The notes beneath the pieces are model-generated. The model had not been told where the DNA came from. It saw only the letters and a program-made list of their open reading frames with translations, and did not search any database. This document shows positions 644-35,330 of a stretch of 35,376 nucleotides of DNA, piece after piece. Origin of the DNA: Ruminococcus sp. (GTDB lineage: Bacteria > Bacillota > Clostridia > Oscillospirales > Ruminococcaceae); NCBI GenBank assembly GCA_003488415.1, contig DNLQ01000130.1, positions 1 through 35,376 on the forward strand. The letters run 5' to 3'. The position numbers and the translations under genes were made by a program. Each line of letters begins with the position of its first letter. Within the stretch, counting starts at the first letter, position 1.

Positions 644-805
644 TTATTCTTCTACGATTTCAAAGCATTCAGGTGGAAAAAGATAATCTTCGTCAAGCTC
701 AGTCATTATCCTATACCAGCCTTTTTCAACCGAAATAACTTCATATATTTTGTCTTTTTCAAAAGCTGTATCTAAATACTGTTTACCTATATATTTGACT
801 TTCAT
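644..805 (-). CDS. 53-aa putative immunity protein for the portal-fused domain (missed by ORF track)
   Basis: MKVKYIGKQYLDTAFEKDKIYEVISVEKGWYRIMTELDEDYLFPPECFEIVEE; ATGA overlap with the portal stop; paralog at 2805-2921. Confidence 0.75.
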   Translation of the reverse strand: MKVKYIGKQYLDTAFEKDKIYEVISVEKGWYRIMTELDEDYLFPPECFEIVEE

Positions 806-2469
806 TCCAACCACCTCTTTATGAAAAAATCGTGTTTTCCTATACCTTCACACTGTGCCCAGTGTAATTCAGCTTTTCGCCCTTCACCGTAATAATCTAC
901 AGTTCCTGTGCCTTTAGCGTGTTGCCAATCTTTGGCTTTACCGCCGTATTTTTTAGCATATTTATCAGCTTTTCGGAACTCAGATTTAACGCCCTTTCCA
1001 GCAAAGACCTCAACATCTTGCAAACTGGTCCTTTCAACAAGGTTAAAATGTTCACCCGTTTCCAAATCCATAATGTCATAGTTTTTAGCCTTTGCTCCAA
1101 GTGACTTTCCGACCTCAATATCCTCTAATTTTATTATATCAGTTTTTTTGGATTTGTCAACCTTTTTCGTCGCTCTTCCTCCGCCTACGCTTCTGCTCCC
1201 CTGCATCTTTCCGTCAGGACCTTGGATATATTGGCGGTACCTCAGCTCTGTAAGTGCCCGTTCCTCACCGGTAACAAGGTTCTTTGTCTGTCCGGTATTG
1301 GGGGTATAGACCTCCATAGTAACAGGATCAAGGAGAACATCAGCAAGACCGAGGGTGATATAGTTGAAGCCGAGAGGCTCATAGTCCTCTTCCCGGCGGA
1401 TCTCATCCACCTGCAGGATGTTGTTCCGCTTGGCTATCTCATAAGCCTGCATACGTTCAAGAAGACTGCCGCGTGTCAGTTCCTTGGTATCAAACGCCCA
1501 GTAATACCCCTGCTCCTTCTCGGATTCAAGCAGGAGAACGTTGTCCAGCTCTGTCTCGATCTGATTCAGGAGCGATATGACCGCCGAAATGAACTTCTTG
1601 TTGTCGTCATCGGATGCTCCGCCGTCAATGACCGTATGAGGGAAGCCGAACAGCTTGCAGATCTCGATGCTGTTGGTCTTCTTATTCTCGTTCATCTGGA
1701 GCTCCGCAGCCGTTGAGGATATCGCCTCGAAGTCAACACCGTCATTCAGCACGATTATCTTGTCACGCTTCTGCTCGTTGTCATAGACCTTCTGGTAACC
1801 TTCCCTGATCGCTGCTATCGCCGCATCCGAGAGCCTGTTCTTCGCTTTCAGGAAGCCCGGCTTGCAGCCGCCGTTGGAGTTCATCATGTTCTCCAGCTTC
1901 AGAGCGTTCCACGCTGCCGAAAGTACCGAGGATGCCTCCTCCTGCAACGGGATGTTCGTGTAGCCGTCCCGCGTCTTCCTCAGCAGCTTGATAAACTGGA
2001 AATCATAATAGTTCTGCGCGTTTATCTGCACTCTGAATGCCTTGAATATCGGATCATTGTTGCACATGATGCTCACGTTCCGGCTGTCCACATAGTGCAG
2101 GCTCCGGACACTCAGACCGTCGCTGTTGACGTATATCCATGCTCCGCGCCCGAGGTAGTAGTCCTCCACCGCTGCTTTCCACATGTCAACAGTGCTGAGA
2201 GTGTCGCCGGTGCTGCCGTTGAGCAGCTTCAGCCGGTCATCGTCGGATATCTCCGTGACCTGCTCTTCATCCTTCCTGTAAAGCTTCACCGGCAGCCGCG
2301 ATATGGTCTCCCCTATCTTGCCGATGCAGGCTGATACCGTCGGTATGCTCAGCGCAGCCTCCCGCGTAAGTTCTCCGGTCAGTCCGAAGAACGTCAGTAT
2401 GGTGTTTTCGCCGTTCTGAGCTGTATCCGCCCTTATTTCCTGCCGCTTTTTTCGTCTGAAAAGTCCTAT
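802..2469 (-). CDS. HK97-family portal protein with C-terminal toxin-like extension
   Basis: Portal motifs (ALSIPTVSACIGKIGETISRLP, EICKLFGFP, DEIRREEDYEPL); ~150-aa extra C-terminus after ELR; start inferred at ATA 2469 after RBS AAAGGAG. Confidence 0.9.
   Translation of the reverse strand: MGLFRRKKRQEIRADTAQNGENTILTFFGLTGELTREAALSIPTVSACIGKIGETISRLPVKLYRKDEEQVTEISDDDRLKLLNGSTGDTLSTVDMWKAAVEDYYLGRGAWIYVNSDGLSVRSLHYVDSRNVSIMCNNDPIFKAFRVQINAQNYYDFQFIKLLRKTRDGYTNIPLQEEASSVLSAAWNALKLENMMNSNGGCKPGFLKAKNRLSDAAIAAIREGYQKVYDNEQKRDKIIVLNDGVDFEAISSTAAELQMNENKKTNSIEICKLFGFPHTVIDGGASDDDNKKFISAVISLLNQIETELDNVLLLESEKEQGYYWAFDTKELTRGSLLERMQAYEIAKRNNILQVDEIRREEDYEPLGFNYITLGLADVLLDPVTMEVYTPNTGQTKNLVTGEERALTELRYRQYIQGPDGKMQGSRSVGGGRATKKVDKSKKTDIIKLEDIEVGKSLGAKAKNYDIMDLETGEHFNLVERTSLQDVEVFAGKGVKSEFRKADKYAKKYGGKAKDWQHAKGTGTVDYYGEGRKAELHWAQCEGIGKHDFFIKRWLE
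1133..1160 (-). promoter_or_regulatory. Intragenic sigma-A promoter in portal linker
   Basis: TTGACA-16nt-TATAAT with extended TG, in codons VDKSKKTDII. Confidence 0.75.
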
Positions 2470-2496
2470 TTTGACCACTCCTTTCGTGGTTTGGAT

Positions 2497-2546
2497 ATAA
2501 AAACAGCACTTGCAGCCGACATTGGTGCCGGTCACAAATGCTTTCA
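2497..2546 (-). terminator. Terminator-like hairpin upstream of portal
   Basis: AAAGCATTTGTG-ACCGGCA-CCAA-TGTCGG-CTGCAAGTGCTG then TTTTTAT; related to 33987-34038 and 35352-35376. Confidence 0.5.
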
Positions 2547-2582
2547 AGCGTTGTTTACTTCACTTCGCGTTTTAATATAGGC

Positions 2583-2612: not shown

Positions 2613-2714
2613 CTTATCTTTTTTCTTTTCTTCCTCAAGTCTTTTGATCATTTCAGCAAGTCTCTCAGAGCCTTCCTTATTTGATCCGTCAAGAACTACA
2701 TTCATTTCTTCCAT
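2604..2714 (-). CDS. 36-aa small protein, putative orphan immunity
   Basis: MEEMNVVLDGSNKEGSERLAEMIKRLEEEKKKDKTV with RBS AAAGGTGG; overlaps the end of a start-less frame (...GGLFEWKK*). Confidence 0.45.
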   Translation of the reverse strand: MEEMNVVLDGSNKEGSERLAEMIKRLEEEKKKDKTV

Positions 2715-2804
2715 TCAAAAAGCCCACCTTTCTGCTGATTATCAAGGAATTTATTTACTACCGTTCGGTATTCGTTATCACGATATTCACCTTTTTTAGT
2801 TGCT

Positions 2805-2921
2805 TTAAGCACCTTTGTCGTCTTTGATTCTGTACCAACCTTTTTCGACAGAAATGACATCATATATCTTTCCGTTTGTCAGAACAAGAAAACTTGTTTT
2901 ACCAGTGTACTTAACTTTCAT
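2805..2921 (-). pseudogene. Truncated paralog of the 644-805 immunity protein
   Basis: MKVKYTGKTSFLVLTNGKIYDVISVEKGWYRIKDDKGA*; RBS GGAGG; lacks the C-terminal EDYLFPP segment. Confidence 0.65.
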
Positions 2922-2941
2922 TAATCCTCCCACCTTAGGTA

Positions 2942-3190
2942 TTAATACCACATAACAAGTCTTTCTTCGGGAATTTCTTTCCTCTTGCCGCTTTTTAGCT
3001 CATCAAGGGTCCTTATAAGCCCGTTTGCAGCCATTCTGCCATACATTGAACCGAATTCTTTGATACTCTCGGCAGTATAATCCCTTGTTTTTATATCAAG
3101 CGTTATATGTGCTGACTTATCACTATTTTCAGGGATATAATCAGCTTCGATTGTTTTTAGTCCTATCGCTATGTTTATTAATCTCAGCAT
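2942..3190 (-). CDS. Putative immunity protein for 3141-3776
   Basis: 82-aa ORF MLRLINIA... overlapping the upstream gene end, RBS AGGGAG. Confidence 0.6.
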   Translation of the reverse strand: MLRLINIAIGLKTIEADYIPENSDKSAHITLDIKTRDYTAESIKEFGSMYGRMAANGLIRTLDELKSGKRKEIPEERLVMWY

Positions 3191-3776
3191 AATACTCCCT
3201 ACTTTCTTTAGCATAATTAAACTTTTTCTCAGATATACTATGAGCTTTTATCTGAGATAAGCCCTTCTTCATCAAATCGCTTTCCATTTTTTCGTGATGA
3301 AGCAGTGTAATATCGTGCTTCTGGATGTTTTTACCCTCAATAAGCCTTTGCCATGATTGAGCCATAGCATAATTGGGATAAAAACGCTCTGGGACGTCTC
3401 CGCCCAAATCATGTTCTTCTATGAATACATGATTCTTTATTTGCAAAATGTCGCTTTCACTAAAGCCGGTATTATTTGAGATGTTTTTTACATCTGTTTT
3501 CATTTTACGAACAGACTCATAGTATTGCTCAGCATGAGCCTGTGCTTCTTTGCTGGCAGGAGATAATGCACCACTCACCGCTCCTGATTTTATTATACCA
3601 CTTTTCGCAGATTTGTCAATACTCTTGCCTGCTCCGCCGGAAGAACTGCCTTCTTCACCAATCAGTATATGCCTTCCGTTTTTTGTTATCCAGCCGCGTA
3701 ATTCATACCAGTGTGTCTCGATGTCTATCACTCTGACCGCATGTTCCGCGTAGTCCATGAACCAATTATTATCCAT
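3141..3776 (-). CDS. Stand-alone toxin-like cargo protein 2 (shared leader + HExxE...H domain)
   Basis: ATG 3776 with RBS GAGGTGG overlapping the TerL stop; leader shared with 5687-6322; C-terminal MAQSWQRL...HDITLLHHEKME...AH resembles C-terminal domains of phage head-associated toxins. Confidence 0.7.
   Translation of the reverse strand: MDNNWFMDYAEHAVRVIDIETHWYELRGWITKNGRHILIGEEGSSSGGAGKSIDKSAKSGIIKSGAVSGALSPASKEAQAHAEQYYESVRKMKTDVKNISNNTGFSESDILQIKNHVFIEEHDLGGDVPERFYPNYAMAQSWQRLIEGKNIQKHDITLLHHEKMESDLMKKGLSQIKAHSISEKKFNYAKESREYYAEINKHSDRTKNNRS
3592..3619 (-). promoter_or_regulatory. Intragenic sigma-A promoter
   Basis: TTGACA-16nt-TATAAT with extended TG, in codons IDKSAKSGII. Confidence 0.75.
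3657..3765. repeat. ~110-bp direct repeat, copy A (cargo leader)
   Basis: Near-identical to ~6201-6308. Confidence 0.85.
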
Positions 3777-3783
3777 ATCCACC

Positions 3784-5484
3784 TCATATGATCTGGCACC
3801 CGAACCCCTGCTCCATGCTGTCAAGCACATTCACCTGCAAGAGATACAGCGCGTTTATGACAGATACCACCATATCCACCTTGCCGGCGGACTTTCTCTT
3901 GTTGACATACTTGTTCAGATTCGTGTCCTCGGTGCATCTGGCGTTCTGGAAGTTGATCTCCAGCATATGATTCTCCTCATACCGCAGCTTACGGCTCAGG
4001 ATACGTTCTTTCAGCAGCTTCGTTGGTCTGTGTAAGACGCTGCTGTGCTGTCTAATCTCAACGCACTCGATCGGATCCTCTCCGCTTTCCAGCTTCTGTA
4101 CTGTGGAGATAGCATTGTACCGGTCAAAGCCCAGCTGAACTATCTCAACGCCGTACTGCTCCGGCAGCGACTGTATGAACCGCTCCACAAAGCCGTAGTC
4201 AATGACCTCATCACCGCAGGCAAAGCATTCTCCTGCGGCTATGAGCTTCTTGTAATCCACCTTTTCGCGCTGGGATTTCTCGTCGATGCGGTCAGCCGGG
4301 ATGAATCCCCAGACCTTGACGTATATCATATCCTCATCCGCATCATATGTCACCATTGCGACCGAGGTATTGTCATCGGTCTGAGAGAGGTCAAGCCCGA
4401 TATATACCTGTCTGCCCCTCCAGAACTCAGCATCCGCCGGAACTTTACACAGTCTTACCTTCGTTATCTCGACAAATCCCTCAACTCCGAGTCCTTTGTA
4501 GAGGATGTTCATGTGCTTGCACAGGAAGTTCTCCCGCTTGTTCTCATAATCTATGGCAGCCTGACGCTTCGCCCTCAGGTCATCCATGACGTATTCATGG
4601 GCGTACGCCACCGGATTAGCCTGATACAGCGCTGTGTCCGATGTCATCCACGCATCGCCGGTCTTGAACTCATCATCCGGCTCATAGAGCAGTGCGAACA
4701 CCCTTCCATGCCGTAGTCCGTCAAGGATCTTTTTGGCGTTGTCAACCTCTTCCAGCATAGCATTGTTGTCATTGGGGTACTGGGTAGAGATGATGATGCC
4801 AAGCTTCTCCCTCAGCACGATCTGTGAGGATCGCATGGCTTCTATGGGATAGTTGTCCATTGCTCCGCACTCGTCAGCAAGAAACATATTTGCAAGCTTT
4901 CCGTCCATCTTGTCCTGTAAGTAAGCAAGAGGAGTATACTCAGAGTCAGTCAGCTTGCAGCGTATCTCCTTCCGCAGCAGCTTGAACACCTTCTCGTCCG
5001 CCAGACAGGGGCTCGACTTGATTATCTTCTTGATAGCCACCTGCAATTCACTGGAGAGTTTCAGATCCGGTGCCACACTGAAAAAGCGGCTGAACTTCGG
5101 CTCTGTCAGCAGTCCGATAATAAAAATGACCGCTGAGGTGAACGTCTTGAAGTTCTTCCTCGCGATCTCTAAAAGCCCGGTCTCGTAGTACCGGAGACTG
5201 TCGCTCCGGCGCTTTGTACAGAACAAGGCATATATGAATAAAACTGCGTAGTCCTCAAGTCCCTCATACATCGAATGTCCGAGGTCAGGGTGCATGATGA
5301 TCTTCAGCAGCTTCGTTATCTTCTTCCAGCGCTTCTCACAGACATATGCTTCATCGCTCTGACCGTCCGCTATCTCCAGCCAGATCACCGCCTGCTTCTT
5401 TATGTACCGCCCGACATAGTGATTGTCCGGCTCGGTACACCACAGAGCATATTTATAAGCTCTGCTGTTCTTCACTATGTCAAT
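3784..5484 (-). CDS. terL: Terminase large subunit
   Basis: Walker A-like IARKNFKT, Walker B FLADE, nuclease GLDLS and KVDMVVS; start inferred at ATT 5484 (or GTG 5475) after AAAGGAG. Confidence 0.95.
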   Translation of the reverse strand: MDIVKNSRAYKYALWCTEPDNHYVGRYIKKQAVIWLEIADGQSDEAYVCEKRWKKITKLLKIIMHPDLGHSMYEGLEDYAVLFIYALFCTKRRSDSLRYYETGLLEIARKNFKTFTSAVIFIIGLLTEPKFSRFFSVAPDLKLSSELQVAIKKIIKSSPCLADEKVFKLLRKEIRCKLTDSEYTPLAYLQDKMDGKLANMFLADECGAMDNYPIEAMRSSQIVLREKLGIIISTQYPNDNNAMLEEVDNAKKILDGLRHGRVFALLYEPDDEFKTGDAWMTSDTALYQANPVAYAHEYVMDDLRAKRQAAIDYENKRENFLCKHMNILYKGLGVEGFVEITKVRLCKVPADAEFWRGRQVYIGLDLSQTDDNTSVAMVTYDADEDMIYVKVWGFIPADRIDEKSQREKVDYKKLIAAGECFACGDEVIDYGFVERFIQSLPEQYGVEIVQLGFDRYNAISTVQKLESGEDPIECVEIRQHSSVLHRPTKLLKERILSRKLRYEENHMLEINFQNARCTEDTNLNKYVNKRKSAGKVDMVVSVINALYLLQVNVLDSMEQGFGCQII

Positions 5485-5512
5485 TGCTGTCAGCTCCTTT
5501 CTGCGTCCGGGT

Positions 5513-5544
5513 ATAAGAAAACCGCTCCGATTTCTCGAAGCGGT
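5513..5544 (-). terminator. Intrinsic terminator after ncRNA
   Basis: ACCGCTTCGAGAAATCGGAGCGGT-TTTCTTAT. Confidence 0.75.
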
Positions 5545-5668
5545 CTGGAAAGAGTGGTTATCAGGCAGGCGTAGCATTCTCCTGCATCTCTCGGGATTAC
5601 TCCCTGTCGTTACCAGCGGCGTGTGGTCGCTACGAAATTTACCACCTCTGATAACCTACTCTTATCTT
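5515..5668 (-). ncRNA. Candidate structured ncRNA (~150 nt)
   Basis: Bounded by a perfect promoter and a terminator; closing helix 5648-5662/5551-5564; inner CGUAGC/GCUACG, ACCA/UGGU and GGGA-GUAA-UCCC helices. Confidence 0.6.
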
Positions 5669-5674
5669 ACCTTC

Positions 5675-5703
5675 ATTATATCACATTTATTCTGATTTGT
5701 CAA
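5675..5703 (-). promoter_or_regulatory. Consensus sigma-A promoter at the end of the PBECR gene
   Basis: TTGACA-17nt-TATAAT with extended TG, overlapping codons VDKSE*. Confidence 0.8.
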
Positions 5704-6322
5704 CTTTTTTATACACAGGAACGTTATTGCGTAAACGTTGAGCAAATCTTTTCTCGTTCTCACCAATTGCAGTTAGTATAGAATTCTTATAGCTTGGGTT
5801 TTCCCCTTCAACTACGAGCCTAAGAACTAAGTTTACTGTTTTTCCCTTATGGCTATATGATTTAGACACAATAGCTGTATTGTCCATATCATCTTTGAAT
5901 ATATAGTCGGGTGCTTCTATTATTTCAGGAAAATAGCCTTTAAAATCGTCATAAAACTTCTGACCTCTTCGCTCAATAATGTGTTCGATCCGATTATCTG
6001 TTATGATCACCTCGTCGGTGAGAATTCTTCCATTTGCAATAGTTTCAAACTTTTCAACATCTATCTTTCCAACTTTATGCACATCAGTTCCCGCCGTTTC
6101 TCCTGTCTTTTCTTCAATTATACCACTTTCCCCGGCTTTGTCAACCTTTTTGGCAGCTTTTCTGCCTGCTCCGCTGGTGGAGCTGCCACCCTCATCATCG
6201 CCAATCAGGATATGCCTTCCGTTTTTTGTTATCCAGCCTCTGAGCTCATACCAGCGTGTCTCGATGTCTATCACTCTGACCGCATGTTCCGCGTAATCTA
6301 TGAACCAGTCTTTATTCATCAT
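5687..6322 (-). CDS. Stand-alone cargo protein 1 with PBECR2-like (BECR-fold) ribonuclease domain
   Basis: TDEVIITDNRIEHIIERR...IIEAPDYIFKD...NTA...LVLRL...YKNSILT pattern of PBECR2; shared leader; overlaps TerS stop. Confidence 0.75.
   Translation of the reverse strand: MMNKDWFIDYAEHAVRVIDIETRWYELRGWITKNGRHILIGDDEGGSSTSGAGRKAAKKVDKAGESGIIEEKTGETAGTDVHKVGKIDVEKFETIANGRILTDEVIITDNRIEHIIERRGQKFYDDFKGYFPEIIEAPDYIFKDDMDNTAIVSKSYSHKGKTVNLVLRLVVEGENPSYKNSILTAIGENEKRFAQRLRNNVPVYKKVDKSE
6117..6144 (-). promoter_or_regulatory. Intragenic sigma-A promoter
   Basis: TTGACA-16nt-TATAAT with extended TG, in codons VDKAGESGII. Confidence 0.75.
6201..6308. repeat. ~110-bp direct repeat, copy B (cargo leader)
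   Basis: Near-identical to ~3657-3765. Confidence 0.85.
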
Positions 6323-6764
6323 CGCTCAGCACCTTCAGCAGCGGATTCTCTTCCTTCGCCTGCAAGTTGAGGTTGCCCATTTTCGCCCTGCTCTGAGGAC
6401 TCAGGCACAGCTCATTGCAGCAGCGGAAGAAGGACTTCGTATATCTGTCCTTCGATTGCAGCAGCTTGTCATTGCTGAGCTGCACCGGATCCTGATTGAT
6501 CCTGCTCTCTATCTCCTGCATCCTGTCAAGCGCGATGCAGCACTCGGTCAGCACATAGATGTCCAGATTGCCAAGGATGCCGCTGCCCTCCAGTTCCCGG
6601 ACGATGAACTTGAAGATCTTCTTCTGCGCAGTCGTCAGATACTTAGGCGGACGCAGCCTGTCTGCCCTGCCTCTGAGCAGTTCTTCGGTCGAGGACTTTG
6701 CCTCAGCCTCCGCCTTCGTAAGGTGCTTTGACGTAGTTTTCGCACTCATTGCCGGTCTCGCCAC
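6312..6764 (-). CDS. terS: Terminase small subunit, P27 family
   Basis: PPKYLT...LGNLD...ELCLSPQSRAK; GTG 6764 after AAAGGACGTGA. Confidence 0.9.
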   Translation of the reverse strand: MARPAMSAKTTSKHLTKAEAEAKSSTEELLRGRADRLRPPKYLTTAQKKIFKFIVRELEGSGILGNLDIYVLTECCIALDRMQEIESRINQDPVQLSNDKLLQSKDRYTKSFFRCCNELCLSPQSRAKMGNLNLQAKEENPLLKVLSDDE

Positions 6765-6782
6765 AGTATCACGTCCTTTCAT

Positions 6783-6865: not shown

Positions 6866-7225
6866 TTACAAGATTTTTAACAATTTTTCCGCAGAAATTT
6901 CTCCGCTTTCTGCCTTTTCGTGATGAAAACGGCATAGTGTTATCAGGTTTTTTTCATCTAAACGCAACTCAAAGTTAGTTTTCAGCGGCCGTATATGATG
7001 CACTGATAGTTCCTCGTTGCAGAGCCGGATCTTTCCGCCTATACCGTGAAGACACGCCTGACAGAGATACTTGTCACGGCGCATGATGTATCCACGCTTT
7101 TCCTTCCACTCATAGCTGCCGCGGAACACATCTGCGCCGGATGAAGCGTTCTTCTCTGCCGGCTTTTTCGCGCAGACTTCGCCGCTGCTGTGGATGCCTC
7201 CGCAGTACGGACATGCCTTCTTCAT
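6866..7225 (-). CDS. HNH endonuclease (terminase-associated)
   Basis: RDKYLCQAC...VHHIRP...NLITLCRFHH upstream of terS. Confidence 0.9.
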   Translation of the reverse strand: MKKACPYCGGIHSSGEVCAKKPAEKNASSGADVFRGSYEWKEKRGYIMRRDKYLCQACLHGIGGKIRLCNEELSVHHIRPLKTNFELRLDEKNLITLCRFHHEKAESGEISAEKLLKIL

Positions 7226-7509: not shown

Positions 7510-7584
7510 TGGTTGCAGGTGTGGGACTCGAACCCACGACCTCAAGGTTATGAGCCTTGCGAACTGCCGCTGTTCCAACCTGCC
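7510..7584 (-). tRNA. tRNA-Met(CAT), initiator-like
   Basis: Cloverleaf: acceptor GGCAGGT/ACCTGCA, D stem GAAC/GTTC, anticodon stem CAAGG/CCTTG with loop CTCATAA, T arm GTGGG-TTCGAGT-CCCAC, encoded CCA. Confidence 0.9.
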
Positions 7585-8800: not shown

Positions 8801-9561
8801 CGCGCTTTCTCCTTCCCGAATCTGTTGATAACGAACTTGTACTTATCAACATCGAAAGCATCTGGATCATTTTTTTGAACTCCGTCCTTATCGAGCCAGA
8901 CAAGAAGCTCAGCATAGCAGTCCTTGTACTCTCGGCTTTGGGATGCCAAATAATTATCCATACGATCAATGTACCTCTCAGCTGTTTTCTTCCCGTAATC
9001 GTTAATTAATTTGTCGTACTCCTCGGTTTTCAACAATACTTTTCCATTTCTGCCGTAGGTTGTTTTGTTGTATTTAAAACTGTCTTTAATATTTTCTTTA
9101 ATATTGTCTTTATATGTAGGGTTACCATTTTTGGTAATAGTAGGGTTACCATTTTTGGTAATAGTAGAGTTACCATTTTTGGTAATAGTAAGGTTACCAT
9201 TTTTGGTAACGGTTACCATTTTTGGTAATAGTAATTCTGTACAACTTTCAACAGCCCATTCTTCATAATCTTTCACAATGGAAATAGTCTGAGGTTTAAC
9301 ACCTTCACTTGATCTCAGTTCTATCAGATTCAGTGCTGAAAGCTTTTTTAATGCCCTTGAAATATGCACAGATCTTGTCCCTACAGCACTTGCAATCTCT
9401 GAAAGTGATATCTCTGCATAACTTCTGTTGAACCCATAAGTCCTGCGGATAATGTACAGCAATATCCGCATTTCATTGCCTGAGATATTAAGCCTGCATA
9501 TTGCTTCGAGCAACTCGTTTGCTATCTTGGTATATCCGTTCTTTAACTGCGGATTAGCCAC
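8797..9561 (-). CDS. Replication initiator, lambda O-like N-terminal domain
   Basis: NGYTKIANELLEA...RRTYGF; internal TITKNGN repeats. Confidence 0.85.
   Translation of the reverse strand: MANPQLKNGYTKIANELLEAICRLNISGNEMRILLYIIRRTYGFNRSYAEISLSEIASAVGTRSVHISRALKKLSALNLIELRSSEGVKPQTISIVKDYEEWAVESCTELLLPKMVTVTKNGNLTITKNGNSTITKNGNPTITKNGNPTYKDNIKENIKDSFKYNKTTYGRNGKVLLKTEEYDKLINDYGKKTAERYIDRMDNYLASQSREYKDCYAELLVWLDKDGVQKNDPDAFDVDKYKFVINRFGKEKAR
9119..9233. repeat. Replication origin iterons (5 copies)
   Basis: GTTACCATTTTTGGTAA palindromic units, mostly 24-bp period, next to an AT-rich tract. Confidence 0.85.
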
Positions 9562-32807: not shown

Positions 32808-33962
32808 TTATGATGCCTTGATCTTGAGCACAGCAAGCTTCTGCTCATCTGTTACCTTTGAATCGAACTCGAACCACGCATCAATGCCGATAGCATGCTG
32901 AGTGTGGTATGCTTCCCTGAGTACCTCGATACCGATATCCTCACGGAAGTTCACGGAGAGTCCGCTGTAGTCACCGTAGAGGACAGCAAGCTTGTTGCCG
33001 CCGATCTCGTCCATATTATCAGAGAGATGCACAGGCTTTCCGAGAAGTCTGAAGGGGAATTCCGCTGTAACATCAGGCTGGATAAGAGGTCTGTTGTCGC
33101 CGTCTTTGAGCTGTTTGAGTGCAGTGAAAGTATTGGATGTCATTGTCCAGCAGGAGTTTTTCTGATACTTCTGCTTTACAGCAGCCTGAAGTGCGATAAG
33201 ATCATCCAAACCGATAGCAAGCGCAGTGCCGGTAGTCACCACATTGCTTGTCTTGGTAGCGCCCTGAGCTGCGGAAGAACCTGAGCCCTTGAGCAGCTCC
33301 TGTTCAAGGAACTGTGCCACTTTCTCAGCGATCTTGTTGATGACGAAATTTGTCACATTGATCGCTGAACTGTTTATAACGCTCTTTCCGATAAGAACGA
33401 GAGCACCTGCAAGGTATCCGCCCAGATCCACCGATGTGAACTTGCCGCTGTCAGCTGTGAGCGGAGTGAACTCAGTTGCATAGGCTACAGTCACATCGTG
33501 GGTGCTGTTCGCCTTTGTCCACTTGGGGATCTTGAGCGTGCCTTTTTCGTGGTACACCTCAGCTCCTGCGAGAATGGGACACATATCAACTGCTGCATCG
33601 ATGATACGCTTGGCGATAGTCGTAGGCACTGTTGATGCACCGTTAGTCCAGTCGATGTTCTGTTCGCCTGCTCTCATCTCGGTGATCTTGCCGCCTATGA
33701 AGTCAGCGAAAGCTCTCTCCTCGATCTGCTCCTGTGTGAGCTGTTCAGCCTTGGGAGCTGCCTGAGGTGCAGGGAGATCAGCTATCCCCTTCGCTCTCTC
33801 CTCCGCCTTGATAGTAGCATCAAGCTGCCTGATCTCAGCCTCTGTCTCGTCAAACTTCTTTGCCTCCTCTTCTGTAAAGGCTCTGTTTTCGGTCTTTACA
33901 GCTTCCAGCATGGAATTGAGAAGGACTACAAGTCCGGCTCTTCTTTCGATAAGTTTCTTCAT
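32808..33962 (-). CDS. Major capsid protein, HK97 family with delta domain
   Basis: N-terminal coiled coil, VPTTIA..II, LKDGDNRP, LLGKPV..SDNM, YGDYS; RBS AAGGAGG. Confidence 0.95.
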   Translation of the reverse strand: MKKLIERRAGLVVLLNSMLEAVKTENRAFTEEEAKKFDETEAEIRQLDATIKAEERAKGIADLPAPQAAPKAEQLTQEQIEERAFADFIGGKITEMRAGEQNIDWTNGASTVPTTIAKRIIDAAVDMCPILAGAEVYHEKGTLKIPKWTKANSTHDVTVAYATEFTPLTADSGKFTSVDLGGYLAGALVLIGKSVINSSAINVTNFVINKIAEKVAQFLEQELLKGSGSSAAQGATKTSNVVTTGTALAIGLDDLIALQAAVKQKYQKNSCWTMTSNTFTALKQLKDGDNRPLIQPDVTAEFPFRLLGKPVHLSDNMDEIGGNKLAVLYGDYSGLSVNFREDIGIEVLREAYHTQHAIGIDAWFEFDSKVTDEQKLAVLKIKAS

Positions 33963-34100: not shown

Positions 34101-34130
34101 CATAAGAAAACCGCTCTCAATGAGGGCGGT
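34101..34130 (-). terminator. Intrinsic terminator ending protease cassette
   Basis: ACCGCCCTCATTGAGAGCGGT-TTTCTTATG. Confidence 0.75.
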
Positions 34131-34346: not shown

Positions 34347-34748
34347 TTAATCATTTTTCCATTTTGAAAAAATGTTATAATCGTTATATCCACGTATTTC
34401 AAATTTATAGGTATATTTTGACGTACTGTGAAAGCCTATACTCTTGCCTTTATACTTAGATTCATAGTTATCATCGATTTGCCTTATAACAGTGCCATAT
34501 TCTTTCTTAGGTAAATGTAATTCAGGATAGGTATATGGTTTTCCATCGAAATCATTCTTGATTTCTTCTTTACCATATTGTACACCATCATCTGATGATT
34601 TGTCAACACTTTTCTTCGTGCTCCCGCCACCTCCGGTATCCGGATCGTGATGATAGAGCTTTCGACTTCCGCCGCCTATACTCCTGCTGCCATTCATTTT
34701 ACCATTCGGCAGCTGAATGTACTGGCGATACCGGAGCTCAATTGCCCT
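34347..34748 (-). CDS. Toxin-like C-terminal extension in frame with protease, behind TGA
   Basis: Frame continues RAIELRYRQYIQLPNGKMNGSRSIGGG..., matching the portal linker; no clear RBS for ATG 34697. Confidence 0.65.
   Translation of the reverse strand, partial: RAIELRYRQYIQLPNGKMNGSRSIGGGSRKLYHHDPDTGGGGSTKKSVDKSSDDGVQYGKEEIKNDFDGKPYTYPELHLPKKEYGTVIRQIDDNYESKYKGKSIGFHSTSKYTYKFEIRGYNDYNIFSKWKND
34577..34606 (-). promoter_or_regulatory. Intragenic sigma-A promoter
   Basis: TTGACA-18nt-TACAAT in codons VDKSSDDGVQY. Confidence 0.55.
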
Positions 34749-35330
34749 TCACTCGAATTCCAGCATTTTCAGCCTGTTCTCATAATCGCTGTAGTCCGGC
34801 TTGTTCTCGATGACAAGCACAGGCTCGATATCGAGGGAACGCAGCTCCATGTCGATGTCACCGCCTGCACGGCACTCCACCGATGTCGCAGCGTAGCACG
34901 GTATCTTGTCCTTGATGAGGGACACATGATCCAGTTCCAGGCTCTTGACGTGTCTGATCGGCAGCTCGTCCTCACCGCGGCTCTCGATTTCGTCCTGTAC
35001 GTTGAACATACCGAAGGACCAGCCTCTCAGTTTGCCCTTGCGTGCCATTTCGATGACTGTTTCATCTGTGATGAGCACATCGGCGTGAAGTCCGATAGCG
35101 TCCTCACGGAGAACGAGAGAACCGTCACGGGTATTTGCATAGGCGTGCCCCTGATCGTGATCGAGTGTCACCGTGATGTCGCCGTTCTTCTTGATAGCCT
35201 CGCTGAAAGCTCTCTCCTCGATAGTTTCAAGGACTTTGCCTCTGGGTGTTATCACCGGTCTGCTCAGCTTGCCGGTGACGTTGACGTAGCCGCTTATATG
35301 CAGTCCGTCAGCTCTGACTTCGATTTTCAT
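34749..35330 (-). CDS. HK97-family prohead protease
   Basis: ISGYVN...E.I...AF, LDH, L.L.ED.IGL, GWSFG, VSL...PCY..TS. Confidence 0.92.
   Translation of the reverse strand: MKIEVRADGLHISGYVNVTGKLSRPVITPRGKVLETIEERAFSEAIKKNGDITVTLDHDQGHAYANTRDGSLVLREDAIGLHADVLITDETVIEMARKGKLRGWSFGMFNVQDEIESRGEDELPIRHVKSLELDHVSLIKDKIPCYAATSVECRAGGDIDMELRSLDIEPVLVIENKPDYSDYENRLKMLEFE

Follow-up and report, generated by a model that had tools for sequence, protein, structure and literature searches.

A junction module shared by unrelated proteins of a Ruminococcus prophage-type element: a candidate signal for loading cargo into the phage head

The contig DNLQ01000130.1 of a Ruminococcus sp. assembly (GCA_003488415.1), a stretch of 35,376 nucleotides (nt) analysed at its full length and called here the window, carries a prophage-type element in which one junction module occurs in four places: in two stand-alone genes, orfA (5687-6322, minus strand) and orfB (3141-3776, minus strand), inside the open reading frame (ORF) of the portal protein, and in the frame behind the stop codon of the prohead protease. 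The module consists of a helix-prone segment ending in E-x-R-x-x-E-L-R, a short core, which in orfA and orfB is of the GWITKNGRHILIG type, a Gly-rich linker and the motif KxVDKS..[GD]II. Its architecture, its portability, selection on it at the protein level and an in-frame TGA arrangement at the protease are established here. The chances appear evenly balanced that the module is, in addition, a portable capsid-loading junction, by which the effectors encoded by orfA and orfB would be packaged in the phage head, the leader docking and the protease cutting, with portal fusion and readthrough as alternative anchors.

A profile of the module matched the genome to which the window belongs in exactly four places (E 1.7e-32 to 9.4e-14), the fourth match containing one TGA inside. 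The parts of the four copies and the protease are located as follows:

6239-6322, minus strand: orfA leader, residues 1-28, ending in ELR, predicted helix (BLASTP, alignment, AlphaFold2 (AF2))
6200-6238, minus strand: orfA core motif GWITKNGRHILIG (40-sequence alignment, family logo)
6113-6199, minus strand: orfA Gly-rich linker with the KKVDKAGESGII motif (alignment, logo, DNA repeats D3/D4)
5687-6112, minus strand: orfA cargo, a PBECR2-type predicted RNase domain, with stop codon (PF18810, E 1.2e-8, residues 90-205; phrog_29609, E 9e-36)
3696-3776, minus strand: orfB leader, residues 1-27 (BLASTP, position behind the large terminase gene)
3591-3695, minus strand: orfB core and Gly-rich linker with KSIDKSAKSGII (BLASTP, alignment, DNA repeats)
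3141-3590, minus strand: orfB cargo domain of no named family, with stop codon (no Pfam or PHROG match)
1132-1266, minus strand: junction module inside the portal ORF, with EERALTELR, the variant core YRQYIQGPDGKMQG, a Gly-rich stretch and KKVDKSKKTDII (own-genome profile match, E 8.3e-21)
802-1131, minus strand: cargo domain, about 110 residues long, at the C-terminal end of the portal ORF (same cargo stand-alone in P0019, P0020, P0035, L025 and L045)
34752-35330 (34749-35330 with the stop), minus strand: prohead protease, Peptidase_S78, with its C-terminal tail at about 34752-34838 (PF04586, E 3e-24; tail comparison)
34749-34751, minus strand: candidate readthrough TGA, in frame between the protease and the fourth module copy (profile match spanning the TGA; codon comparisons)
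34347-34748, minus strand: frame of 133 codons behind the protease TGA, with RAIELR, a variant core, Gly-rich linker, KKSVDKS and a cargo domain (cargo homologous to the post-stop ORF of L072, E 4e-9)

The protease ORF ends in ENRLKMLEFE followed by TGA, and the same frame continues with RAIELRYRQYIQ for 133 codons, passing through RAIELR, YRQYIQLPNGKMNG, a Gly-rich stretch and KKSVDKS into a small domain. A near-identical string follows the portal domain in the portal ORF, which bears a C-terminal extension of roughly 190 residues. Judged by these comparisons, the residues behind the stop are the start of the fourth module copy and not a chance alignment across the stop; translation of that copy is possible only via TGA readthrough.

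The first-pass annotation of the window had reported that the two stand-alone proteins share 34 of 36 leader residues and then diverge, and that both genes are coupled to a terminase gene; each of these observations was reproduced. Identity extends over 34/36 positions in WF.DYAEHAVRVIDIET.WYELRGWITKNGRHILIG, the BLASTP match of orfA and orfB (45/78 identities, E 8e-26) is confined to the N-terminus, and past the Gly-rich/VDKS..GII linker the two proteins are unrelated. At the DNA level the leaders form a 125-nt direct repeat (3652-3776 and 6195-6319) with 88% identity. The ATG of orfA (6322) overlaps the stop codon of the small terminase gene terS (6312-6314), while the ATG of orfB (3776) adjoins the TGA of the large terminase gene terL (3784-3786), lying 7 nt past it and being preceded by GAGGTGGA as a Shine-Dalgarno sequence. 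In the 40-sequence alignment (A2), leader residue Y9 was invariant and A10, E11, R15, I17 and E20 were conserved in at least 90% of the sequences. The AF2 model of orfA obtained with this alignment was of low confidence (mean pLDDT, the predicted local distance difference test score, of 43.8), with a helix only at residues 4-27 (pLDDT about 54), and was used solely for the helical tendency of the leader. As a solo PBECR2 protein encoded between terS and terL, orfA follows a known pattern of polyvalent effectors. The orfB cargo matched neither Pfam nor PHROG, and an Atlas search gave it no named family or function; its cluster has 17 members, all of them stand-alone except for one that is unclassified.

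The portability of the module became evident from its relatives. Leader and module are shared with orfA by 44 clusters of stand-alone proteins of 116-370 residues; in the 40 clusters that were aligned the core was invariant or nearly so, while the C-terminal domains were of many unrelated kinds. Six longer relatives were portal fusions carrying Ntox50 or DUF4258. A profile search of 1.84 billion protein representatives yielded 84 at E 1e-3 or better and thereby a catalogue of attached domains of the kind suggested in the first-pass annotation, with portal, MuF, toxin and other domains: by Pfam, portal (11), MuF (2), Ntox50 (7), DUF6883 (3), DUF4258 (3), Gln_amidase (2) and ATLF-like peptidase (2), the single cases including Zeta toxin, EndoU, ADP-ribosyltransferases, 2H phosphoesterase and a PI3K-like kinase. 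A fused S78 domain was found by Pfam in none of the 84. The named hosts of the relatives were Ruminococcus, including R. flavefaciens, and the other loci came from viral-contig and rumen/gut metagenome collections, some of them from human gut.

A pattern search for the module in 52 loci and the window gave 35 distinct sites: 19 stand-alone genes, seven C-terminal portal fusions without a stop, four protease ends with an in-frame stop, one stand-alone gene with a protease-tail N-terminus (L010) and four others, which by their upstream sequence were three portal ends and one stand-alone gene. The stand-alone genes mostly lie directly after terS, as orfA does. At one site (L005, region 6136) a second, orphan portal 3' end with the module and a different cargo lies downstream of an intact portal fusion, with stops before it, resembling the orphan cassettes of polymorphic toxin loci.

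Clustering of the domains behind 196 module instances, a redundant set in which the same contigs recur across collections, produced 40 cargo clusters, and 12 of the 20 with more than one member used more than one attachment type. Cargo is thus exchanged between sites: the portal cargo of the window is stand-alone elsewhere, and its post-stop cargo is portal-fused elsewhere. The main argument for capsid loading follows from this, because the same cargo occurring across attachment types suggests that all three routes lead to one place and, since the portal C-terminus and the protease sit inside the head, that this common destination is the head interior. The portable tag proposed in the first-pass annotation was therefore upheld in its portability, the same module preceding 40 cargo clusters, while its capsid-loading function is presumed.

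The core is conserved as protein. Codon comparison of all pairs of 14 copies gave 482 synonymous versus 131 non-synonymous differences. In the 40-sequence alignment its residues G, W, I, T, K, G, I and G were invariant, with N, R, H, I and L conserved in at least 90%, and the family logo reads E-L-R-G-W-[IV]-T-[KIY]-N-[GH]-x-H-[IV]-x-I-G-[DE]-[DE] (W in 64/65, T in 62/65, N in 84/94 and H in 93/102).

The leader had also been described as a mimic of the protease C-terminal tail. The gap-free alignment behind this idea proved real and was significant when taken across the stop: in local alignments against 3000 shuffles, the tail plus six post-stop residues matched the orfA leader at p 0.0003-0.003 and the orfB leader at p 0.002-0.015, these six residues belonging to the module itself. 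The idea was weaker for the tail ahead of the stop alone (p 0.016-0.16 with orfA, 0.087-0.28 with orfB), and a profile of 28 canonical leaders missed the protease tails, with at most 3.5 bits and a best rank of 49 among 4181; both results count against the proposed descent. The connection is made by intermediate forms. At L010 the leader of the stand-alone protein clearly copies the protease tail (p 0.0003 or less), and in L010, P0041 and P0042 alike the N-terminus plainly reproduces roughly the final 30 residues of the protease. Variant leaders in genes behind terS or terL (L011, L051, L007) match the tail consensus in register, and those of L011 and L051 fit the tail better than the canonical leader does. 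Because such bridging forms connect the two, we accept on sequence grounds that leader and protease tail are probably of common origin. By analogy with the role reported for the HK97 protease tail, the leader would then be a targeting signal. A complex prediction of the capsid protein (A5) with leader plus core (A2, residues 1-45) scored 0.26, below the mark of 0.32, and favours neither side.

Clipping at ELR, another element of the first-pass annotation, was considered in relation to the motif E-x-R in the proteins of the head, above all in the capsid protein:

32808-33962, minus strand: HK97-type major capsid protein (PF05065, E 6.6e-45, match from residue 155 of a 431-residue ORF)
33669-33962, minus strand: scaffold (delta) portion at the N-terminus of the capsid protein, bearing five conserved E-x-R-A motifs and proposed as docking target and model substrate (motif counts, alignment)

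E-x-R-A occurs five times in residues 1-100 of the capsid protein and not at all in the other 284, a number reached by none of 100000 shuffles, and across ten capsid proteins, the most distant at 40% identity, the five motifs showed little or no variation. The last of them (E-M-R-A, residues 95-98) lies near the position at which the scaffold domain of HK97, with its 102 residues, ends. Among related capsid proteins, 57 distinct ones (loci L058-L137 among the sources) had the motif 260 times in 6169 N-terminal residues and not once in 15390 body residues, the shuffles having a mean of 10.5 and a maximum of 25. The broader form E-x-R[AGSY] was counted 18 times in about 1430 residues of a head-interior set (scaffold domain, protease, portal, orfA, orfB and post-stop ORF) versus five times in the other 19 proteins (about 5700 residues), where neither the large terminase nor the tape measure protein nor most of the tail proteins contained it. 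Five of these motifs are in the protease; E-x-R at its residues 4-6, 152-154 and 162-164 was invariant in eight proteases, with one invariant motif at the hinge between domain and tail. Each junction holds one or two E-x-R motifs (ETRW..ELR). The confinement of E-x-R-A to the scaffold domain gives indirect support to clipping, and we infer from these counts that the protease may cut after E-x-R, including ELR.

All four distinct protease-module junctions (window, L007, L008/L009 and L012) read GAG TGA AGR GCN. Readthrough of this TGA at a low level, yielding a minor protease-cargo fusion, is probable from the comparison of these loci: a conserved in-frame coding region of 133-175 open codons lies behind the single stop and has no start of its own in three of the four, L007, L008 and L012 lacking any ATG, GTG or TTG in the 60 codons past the TGA, a span that covers the whole module. 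The 21 post-stop codons of L007 and L008 show 10 synonymous and three non-synonymous differences, and this mostly synonymous pattern points to a stretch that is translated and under selection. In a second lineage, L072 (67% protease identity), the TGA is at a different place, after the core, and is followed in frame by a 69-codon cargo homologous to that of the window (E 4e-9); since the stop sits elsewhere yet the frame is kept, this locus counts toward readthrough. The protease ORF of L072 (2501-3355) runs directly into an E-D-R-G junction and a core of the NPNHD..GRF type before its TGA. In close relatives without a cargo ORF the protease ends in ENRLK[MA]L[GE] and TAA, with a non-coding frame behind it (7/7; also L058-L063).

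The alternative is that the TGA is a true stop and that what follows are the decaying remains of an earlier protease-cargo fusion or, in the case of the window, a short gene with its start at an ATG at codon 18 past the stop. A number of facts oppose readthrough and fit this alternative. TGA serves this phage as a normal stop, ending 15 of its 33 genes, and about 20 more distant proteases without module or in-frame cargo also end in it; in the tally of protease ends, 24 of 63 distinct loci had TGA, a figure that takes in the two module-bearing loci, L072 and a locus where the capsid gene follows in frame. A single origin of the three E[FY]E-TGA-RA junctions is moreover possible, which makes the identity of the stop weak evidence, and TGA versus TAA was rejected as proof of readthrough, TGA being common both here and in cargo-less proteases. 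The consensus fold near the TGA (-4.2 kcal/mol, one covarying pair) revealed no conserved RNA structure that might be stimulatory, although the sequence of the window taken alone folds unusually well there (z -4.1); the sole tRNA is a tRNA-Met, hence no suppressor tRNA is present. With the S78 domain absent from all 84 representatives, a fused protease-module protein was not seen among them, and the protein sequence of P0040 has a W at the stop position. Finally, a shorter independent product may exist in the window from the codon-18 ATG, and L072 has a TTG at codon 4 past its stop. This window ATG, however, is without a Shine-Dalgarno sequence, the invariant core precedes any possible start, and a true stop would account neither for the long open frames in four loci and the start-free 60 codons in three of them, nor for the 10 to 3 synonymous excess right behind the stop, nor for the frame kept in L072. 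We therefore regard the absence of readthrough as very unlikely.

The capsid-loading reading that we favour would proceed as follows. The leader would be an amphipathic helix descended from the C-terminal tail of the S78 prohead protease and, with one or two E-x-R sites, the near-invariant core GW[IV]T.NG.H[IV].IG and the Gly-rich linker with KxVDKS..GII, would make up the module. During prohead assembly it would bind the capsid protein at its scaffold (delta) domain, in the manner proposed for the tail of the protease itself. The protease would then cut the module at the E-x-R sites, as in the scaffold domain, and the released effector would remain in the head until it passes, together with the DNA, into a new host cell. 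Cargo of these kinds would also have two leader-free routes, namely C-terminal fusion to the portal and fusion to the protease by occasional TGA readthrough. A more far-reaching version is conceivable, if rather doubtful: a modular loading system with a universal S78-cut junction, a tail-derived leader and programmed UGA readthrough giving a sub-stoichiometric, self-releasing protease-effector, the core being a general domain separator or processing signal of polyvalent proteins. Several considerations tell against the reading as a whole. Packaging, cleavage and readthrough are all inferred. E-x-R-A could equally be a structural feature of a coiled-coil scaffold instead of a cleavage site; the HK97 boundary TFNK|S shares with E-x-R only the basic residue before the cut, and where the HK97 cleavage point would fall could not be read reliably from an alignment with HK97 gp5 (20% identity). 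A cut at ELR would leave the invariant core on the cargo, with the role of the core unexplained, and at least three core variants coexist within single phages.

Another reading takes the core itself as the operative signal, a beta-hairpin-like element that would dock the domain in the head or at the portal or mark a processing site, the leader being a mere N-terminal cap. One version of it would have the core cleave itself at the conserved Asn like the NPTH motif of FlhB/YscU, which it may resemble in the N..H spacing. The core is the best conserved element of the logo, and it is present even where targeting is unnecessary, in the portal and protease fusions. Twelve of the 84 proteins, mostly long ones with several domains, contain it 2-5 times, 140-520 residues apart, beside effector domains (PARP-like, Zeta toxin, ART-PolyVal and kinase-like by Pfam; portal or portal-MuF in two), the nine longest having 741-1856 residues. 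AF2 leaves it unstructured in isolation, as expected for a linear motif, and it has a weak likeness to the hairpin repeat of cell-wall-binding proteins. That likeness came from a PDB profile search that returned nothing significant (best E 0.059, range to 0.95, cell-wall-binding repeats of TcdA); a TcdA-type repeat was rejected, the motif being single or 140-520 residues apart and not tandem, and no FlhB/YscU chain was among the hits up to E 10. Some copies carry the variant cores YRQYIQGPDGKMQG, YNHNHD..GRF or WIKG[DE]HGYF, and the first and last of these, lacking Asn and/or His, are difficult to reconcile with a signal residing in those residues. With the conserved leader of the stand-alone genes also left unexplained, a core acting alone appears unlikely. 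We consider it quite unlikely, too, that the shared sequence is mainly a recombination handle for cassette swapping as in polymorphic toxins and that the stand-alone proteins stay unpackaged and help, within the cell that makes them, to take over the host or keep out rival phages. Swapping itself has left traces: leader DNA 88% identical within one genome where the rest of orfA and orfB is unrelated, the orphan portal end with module at L005, cargo families moving between sites, and a remnant 3' end of another cargo gene (2702-2863) that is probably the trace of a cassette replacement between terL and portal. Solo PBECR domains in phages are, besides, already described in the passages available from Iyer et al. 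(2017; PMC5512222). DNA homology alone, however, needs neither a core kept as protein (482 versus 131) nor a leader with conserved residues of its own such as Y9, and the other attachment points, the portal and protease C-termini, are both inside the head. Recombination and packaging are, moreover, compatible with each other.

The window is an entire contig (C30) from a 70%-complete genome bin, and its element is of a temperate siphovirus-like phage with all late genes on the minus strand, in the order HNH endonuclease, terS, orfA, terL, orfB, portal, [contig ends], S78 protease, post-stop frame and capsid protein. An S78 protease and an HK97-type capsid protein with an N-terminal scaffold domain are thus both present. 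The remaining features of this region are:

6866-7225, minus strand: HNH endonuclease, first of the late genes
6312-6782, minus strand: small terminase subunit, terS, upstream of orfA (PF05119)
3784-5577, minus strand: large terminase subunit, terL, upstream of orfB (PF03354 and PF20441)
2702-2863, minus strand: remnant 3' end of another cargo gene, between terL and portal, matching the C-terminal end of P0007/P0012-type cargo proteins
802-2547, minus strand: portal ORF, after orfB

A Pfam scan of orfA, orfB, the portal and the post-stop ORF gave no MuF match, and neither DNA search nor tblastn matched a cultured phage. The tRNA-Met (CAT; 7510-7584, minus strand) sits between the HNH gene and the upstream regulatory genes. 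An Rfam skipping-rope RNA (RF02924; 5557-5655, minus strand; 51.1 bits, E 1.7e-9) lies between orfA and terL and extends over the start of terL. A 30-nt repeat (275-304 and 34101-34130, 97% identical) resembles a minus-strand intrinsic terminator hairpin; one copy immediately precedes the capsid gene, and the other is found between two small ORFs past the portal. The small paralogous ORFs 644-814 and 2805-2951 (both minus strand) have KIY.VISVEKGWYRI in common, the first matching phrog_34144 (E 7e-16); one ORF comes after the portal-cargo fusion and its paralogue near the cargo remnant, and they possibly encode immunity or partner proteins. Within the replication-protein gene, four tandem 24-nt repeats (9087-9209) encode a repeated TITKNGN(P/S/L) and are possibly origin iterons.

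Among the known systems close to this one is the prohead protease gp4 of HK97, whose C-terminal tail reportedly serves as a targeting tail. Both proteases belong to Peptidase_S78 and go with an HK97-type capsid protein with an N-terminal scaffold, and here the cargo leaders are probably related to the phage's own protease tail; the tail-like sequence, however, stands at the N-terminus of separate effector genes, followed by the conserved junction, and the HK97 tail has no evident similarity to the tail of this phage. To our knowledge, no natural cargo using a protease tail has been described. The internal proteins IPI-III of T4 are packaged and injected by means of a short N-terminal capsid targeting sequence that is thought to be removed by the prohead protease. 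They share with orfA and orfB the short N-terminal leader on small proteins, but there is no sequence relation, T4 has a separate scaffolding core, and in the present phage the leader probably derives from the tail of the protease, with a junction that is used in portal and protease fusions as well. Programmed UGA readthrough makes the minor capsid protein A1 of Qbeta; an in-frame extension behind UGA would likewise give a low-abundance, C-terminally extended structural protein here, in a tailed double-stranded DNA phage, with the maturation protease as the extended protein and an effector as the extension. Encapsulin cargo-loading peptides are short, usually C-terminal and not removed, and encapsulin cargo is sometimes fused to a shell component. 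The likeness is in a short portable peptide directing diverse cargo into an HK97-fold shell, the difference in the usual C-terminal position and retention of those peptides.

Effectors attached to head proteins are themselves a known class. In the passages available from Iyer et al. (2017; PMC5512222), packaging and injection are predicted for PBECR and toxin domains that are fused to portals or stand alone among the head genes, and the passages from Jamet et al. (2017; PMC5576092) deal with MuF polymorphic toxins. Ntox50, Zeta toxin, ADP-ribosyltransferases and 2H phosphoesterase in the module family, together with the portal (11/84) and MuF (2/84) fusions, conform to these; unlike MuF polymorphic toxins, the window proteins that were scanned have no N-terminal MuF. 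The shared junction motif, the protease-tail leader and the protease-stop-cargo arrangement were not described in those passages of PMC5512222 and PMC5576092, the supplementary alignments of the former being a place where the motif may occur. Literature searches, which covered few subscription journals and no supplements, turned up no article on this junction or on readthrough at a prohead protease gene. The kind of system is known from capsid targeting sequences and from effectors fused to portal or MuF proteins; what appears to be new are three variations on it, namely the leader resembling the protease tail, the junction common to the attachment types and the placing of cargo behind the TGA of the protease.

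If the capsid-loading reading is true, it would provide a sequence-level rule for phage proteins that are carried in the capsid and injected, a class now recognised mainly by portal or MuF fusion. It would also add a readthrough case in a tailed double-stranded DNA phage, setting the dose of a packaged effector, and suggest a cleavage motif for the S78 proteases of this group. A natural peptide of about 30-70 residues that loaded arbitrary proteins into HK97-fold shells would be useful for the engineering of phages and capsid-like particles. The junction profile offers a route to unannotated packaged effectors in metagenomes, including toxins and possibly anti-defence proteins.

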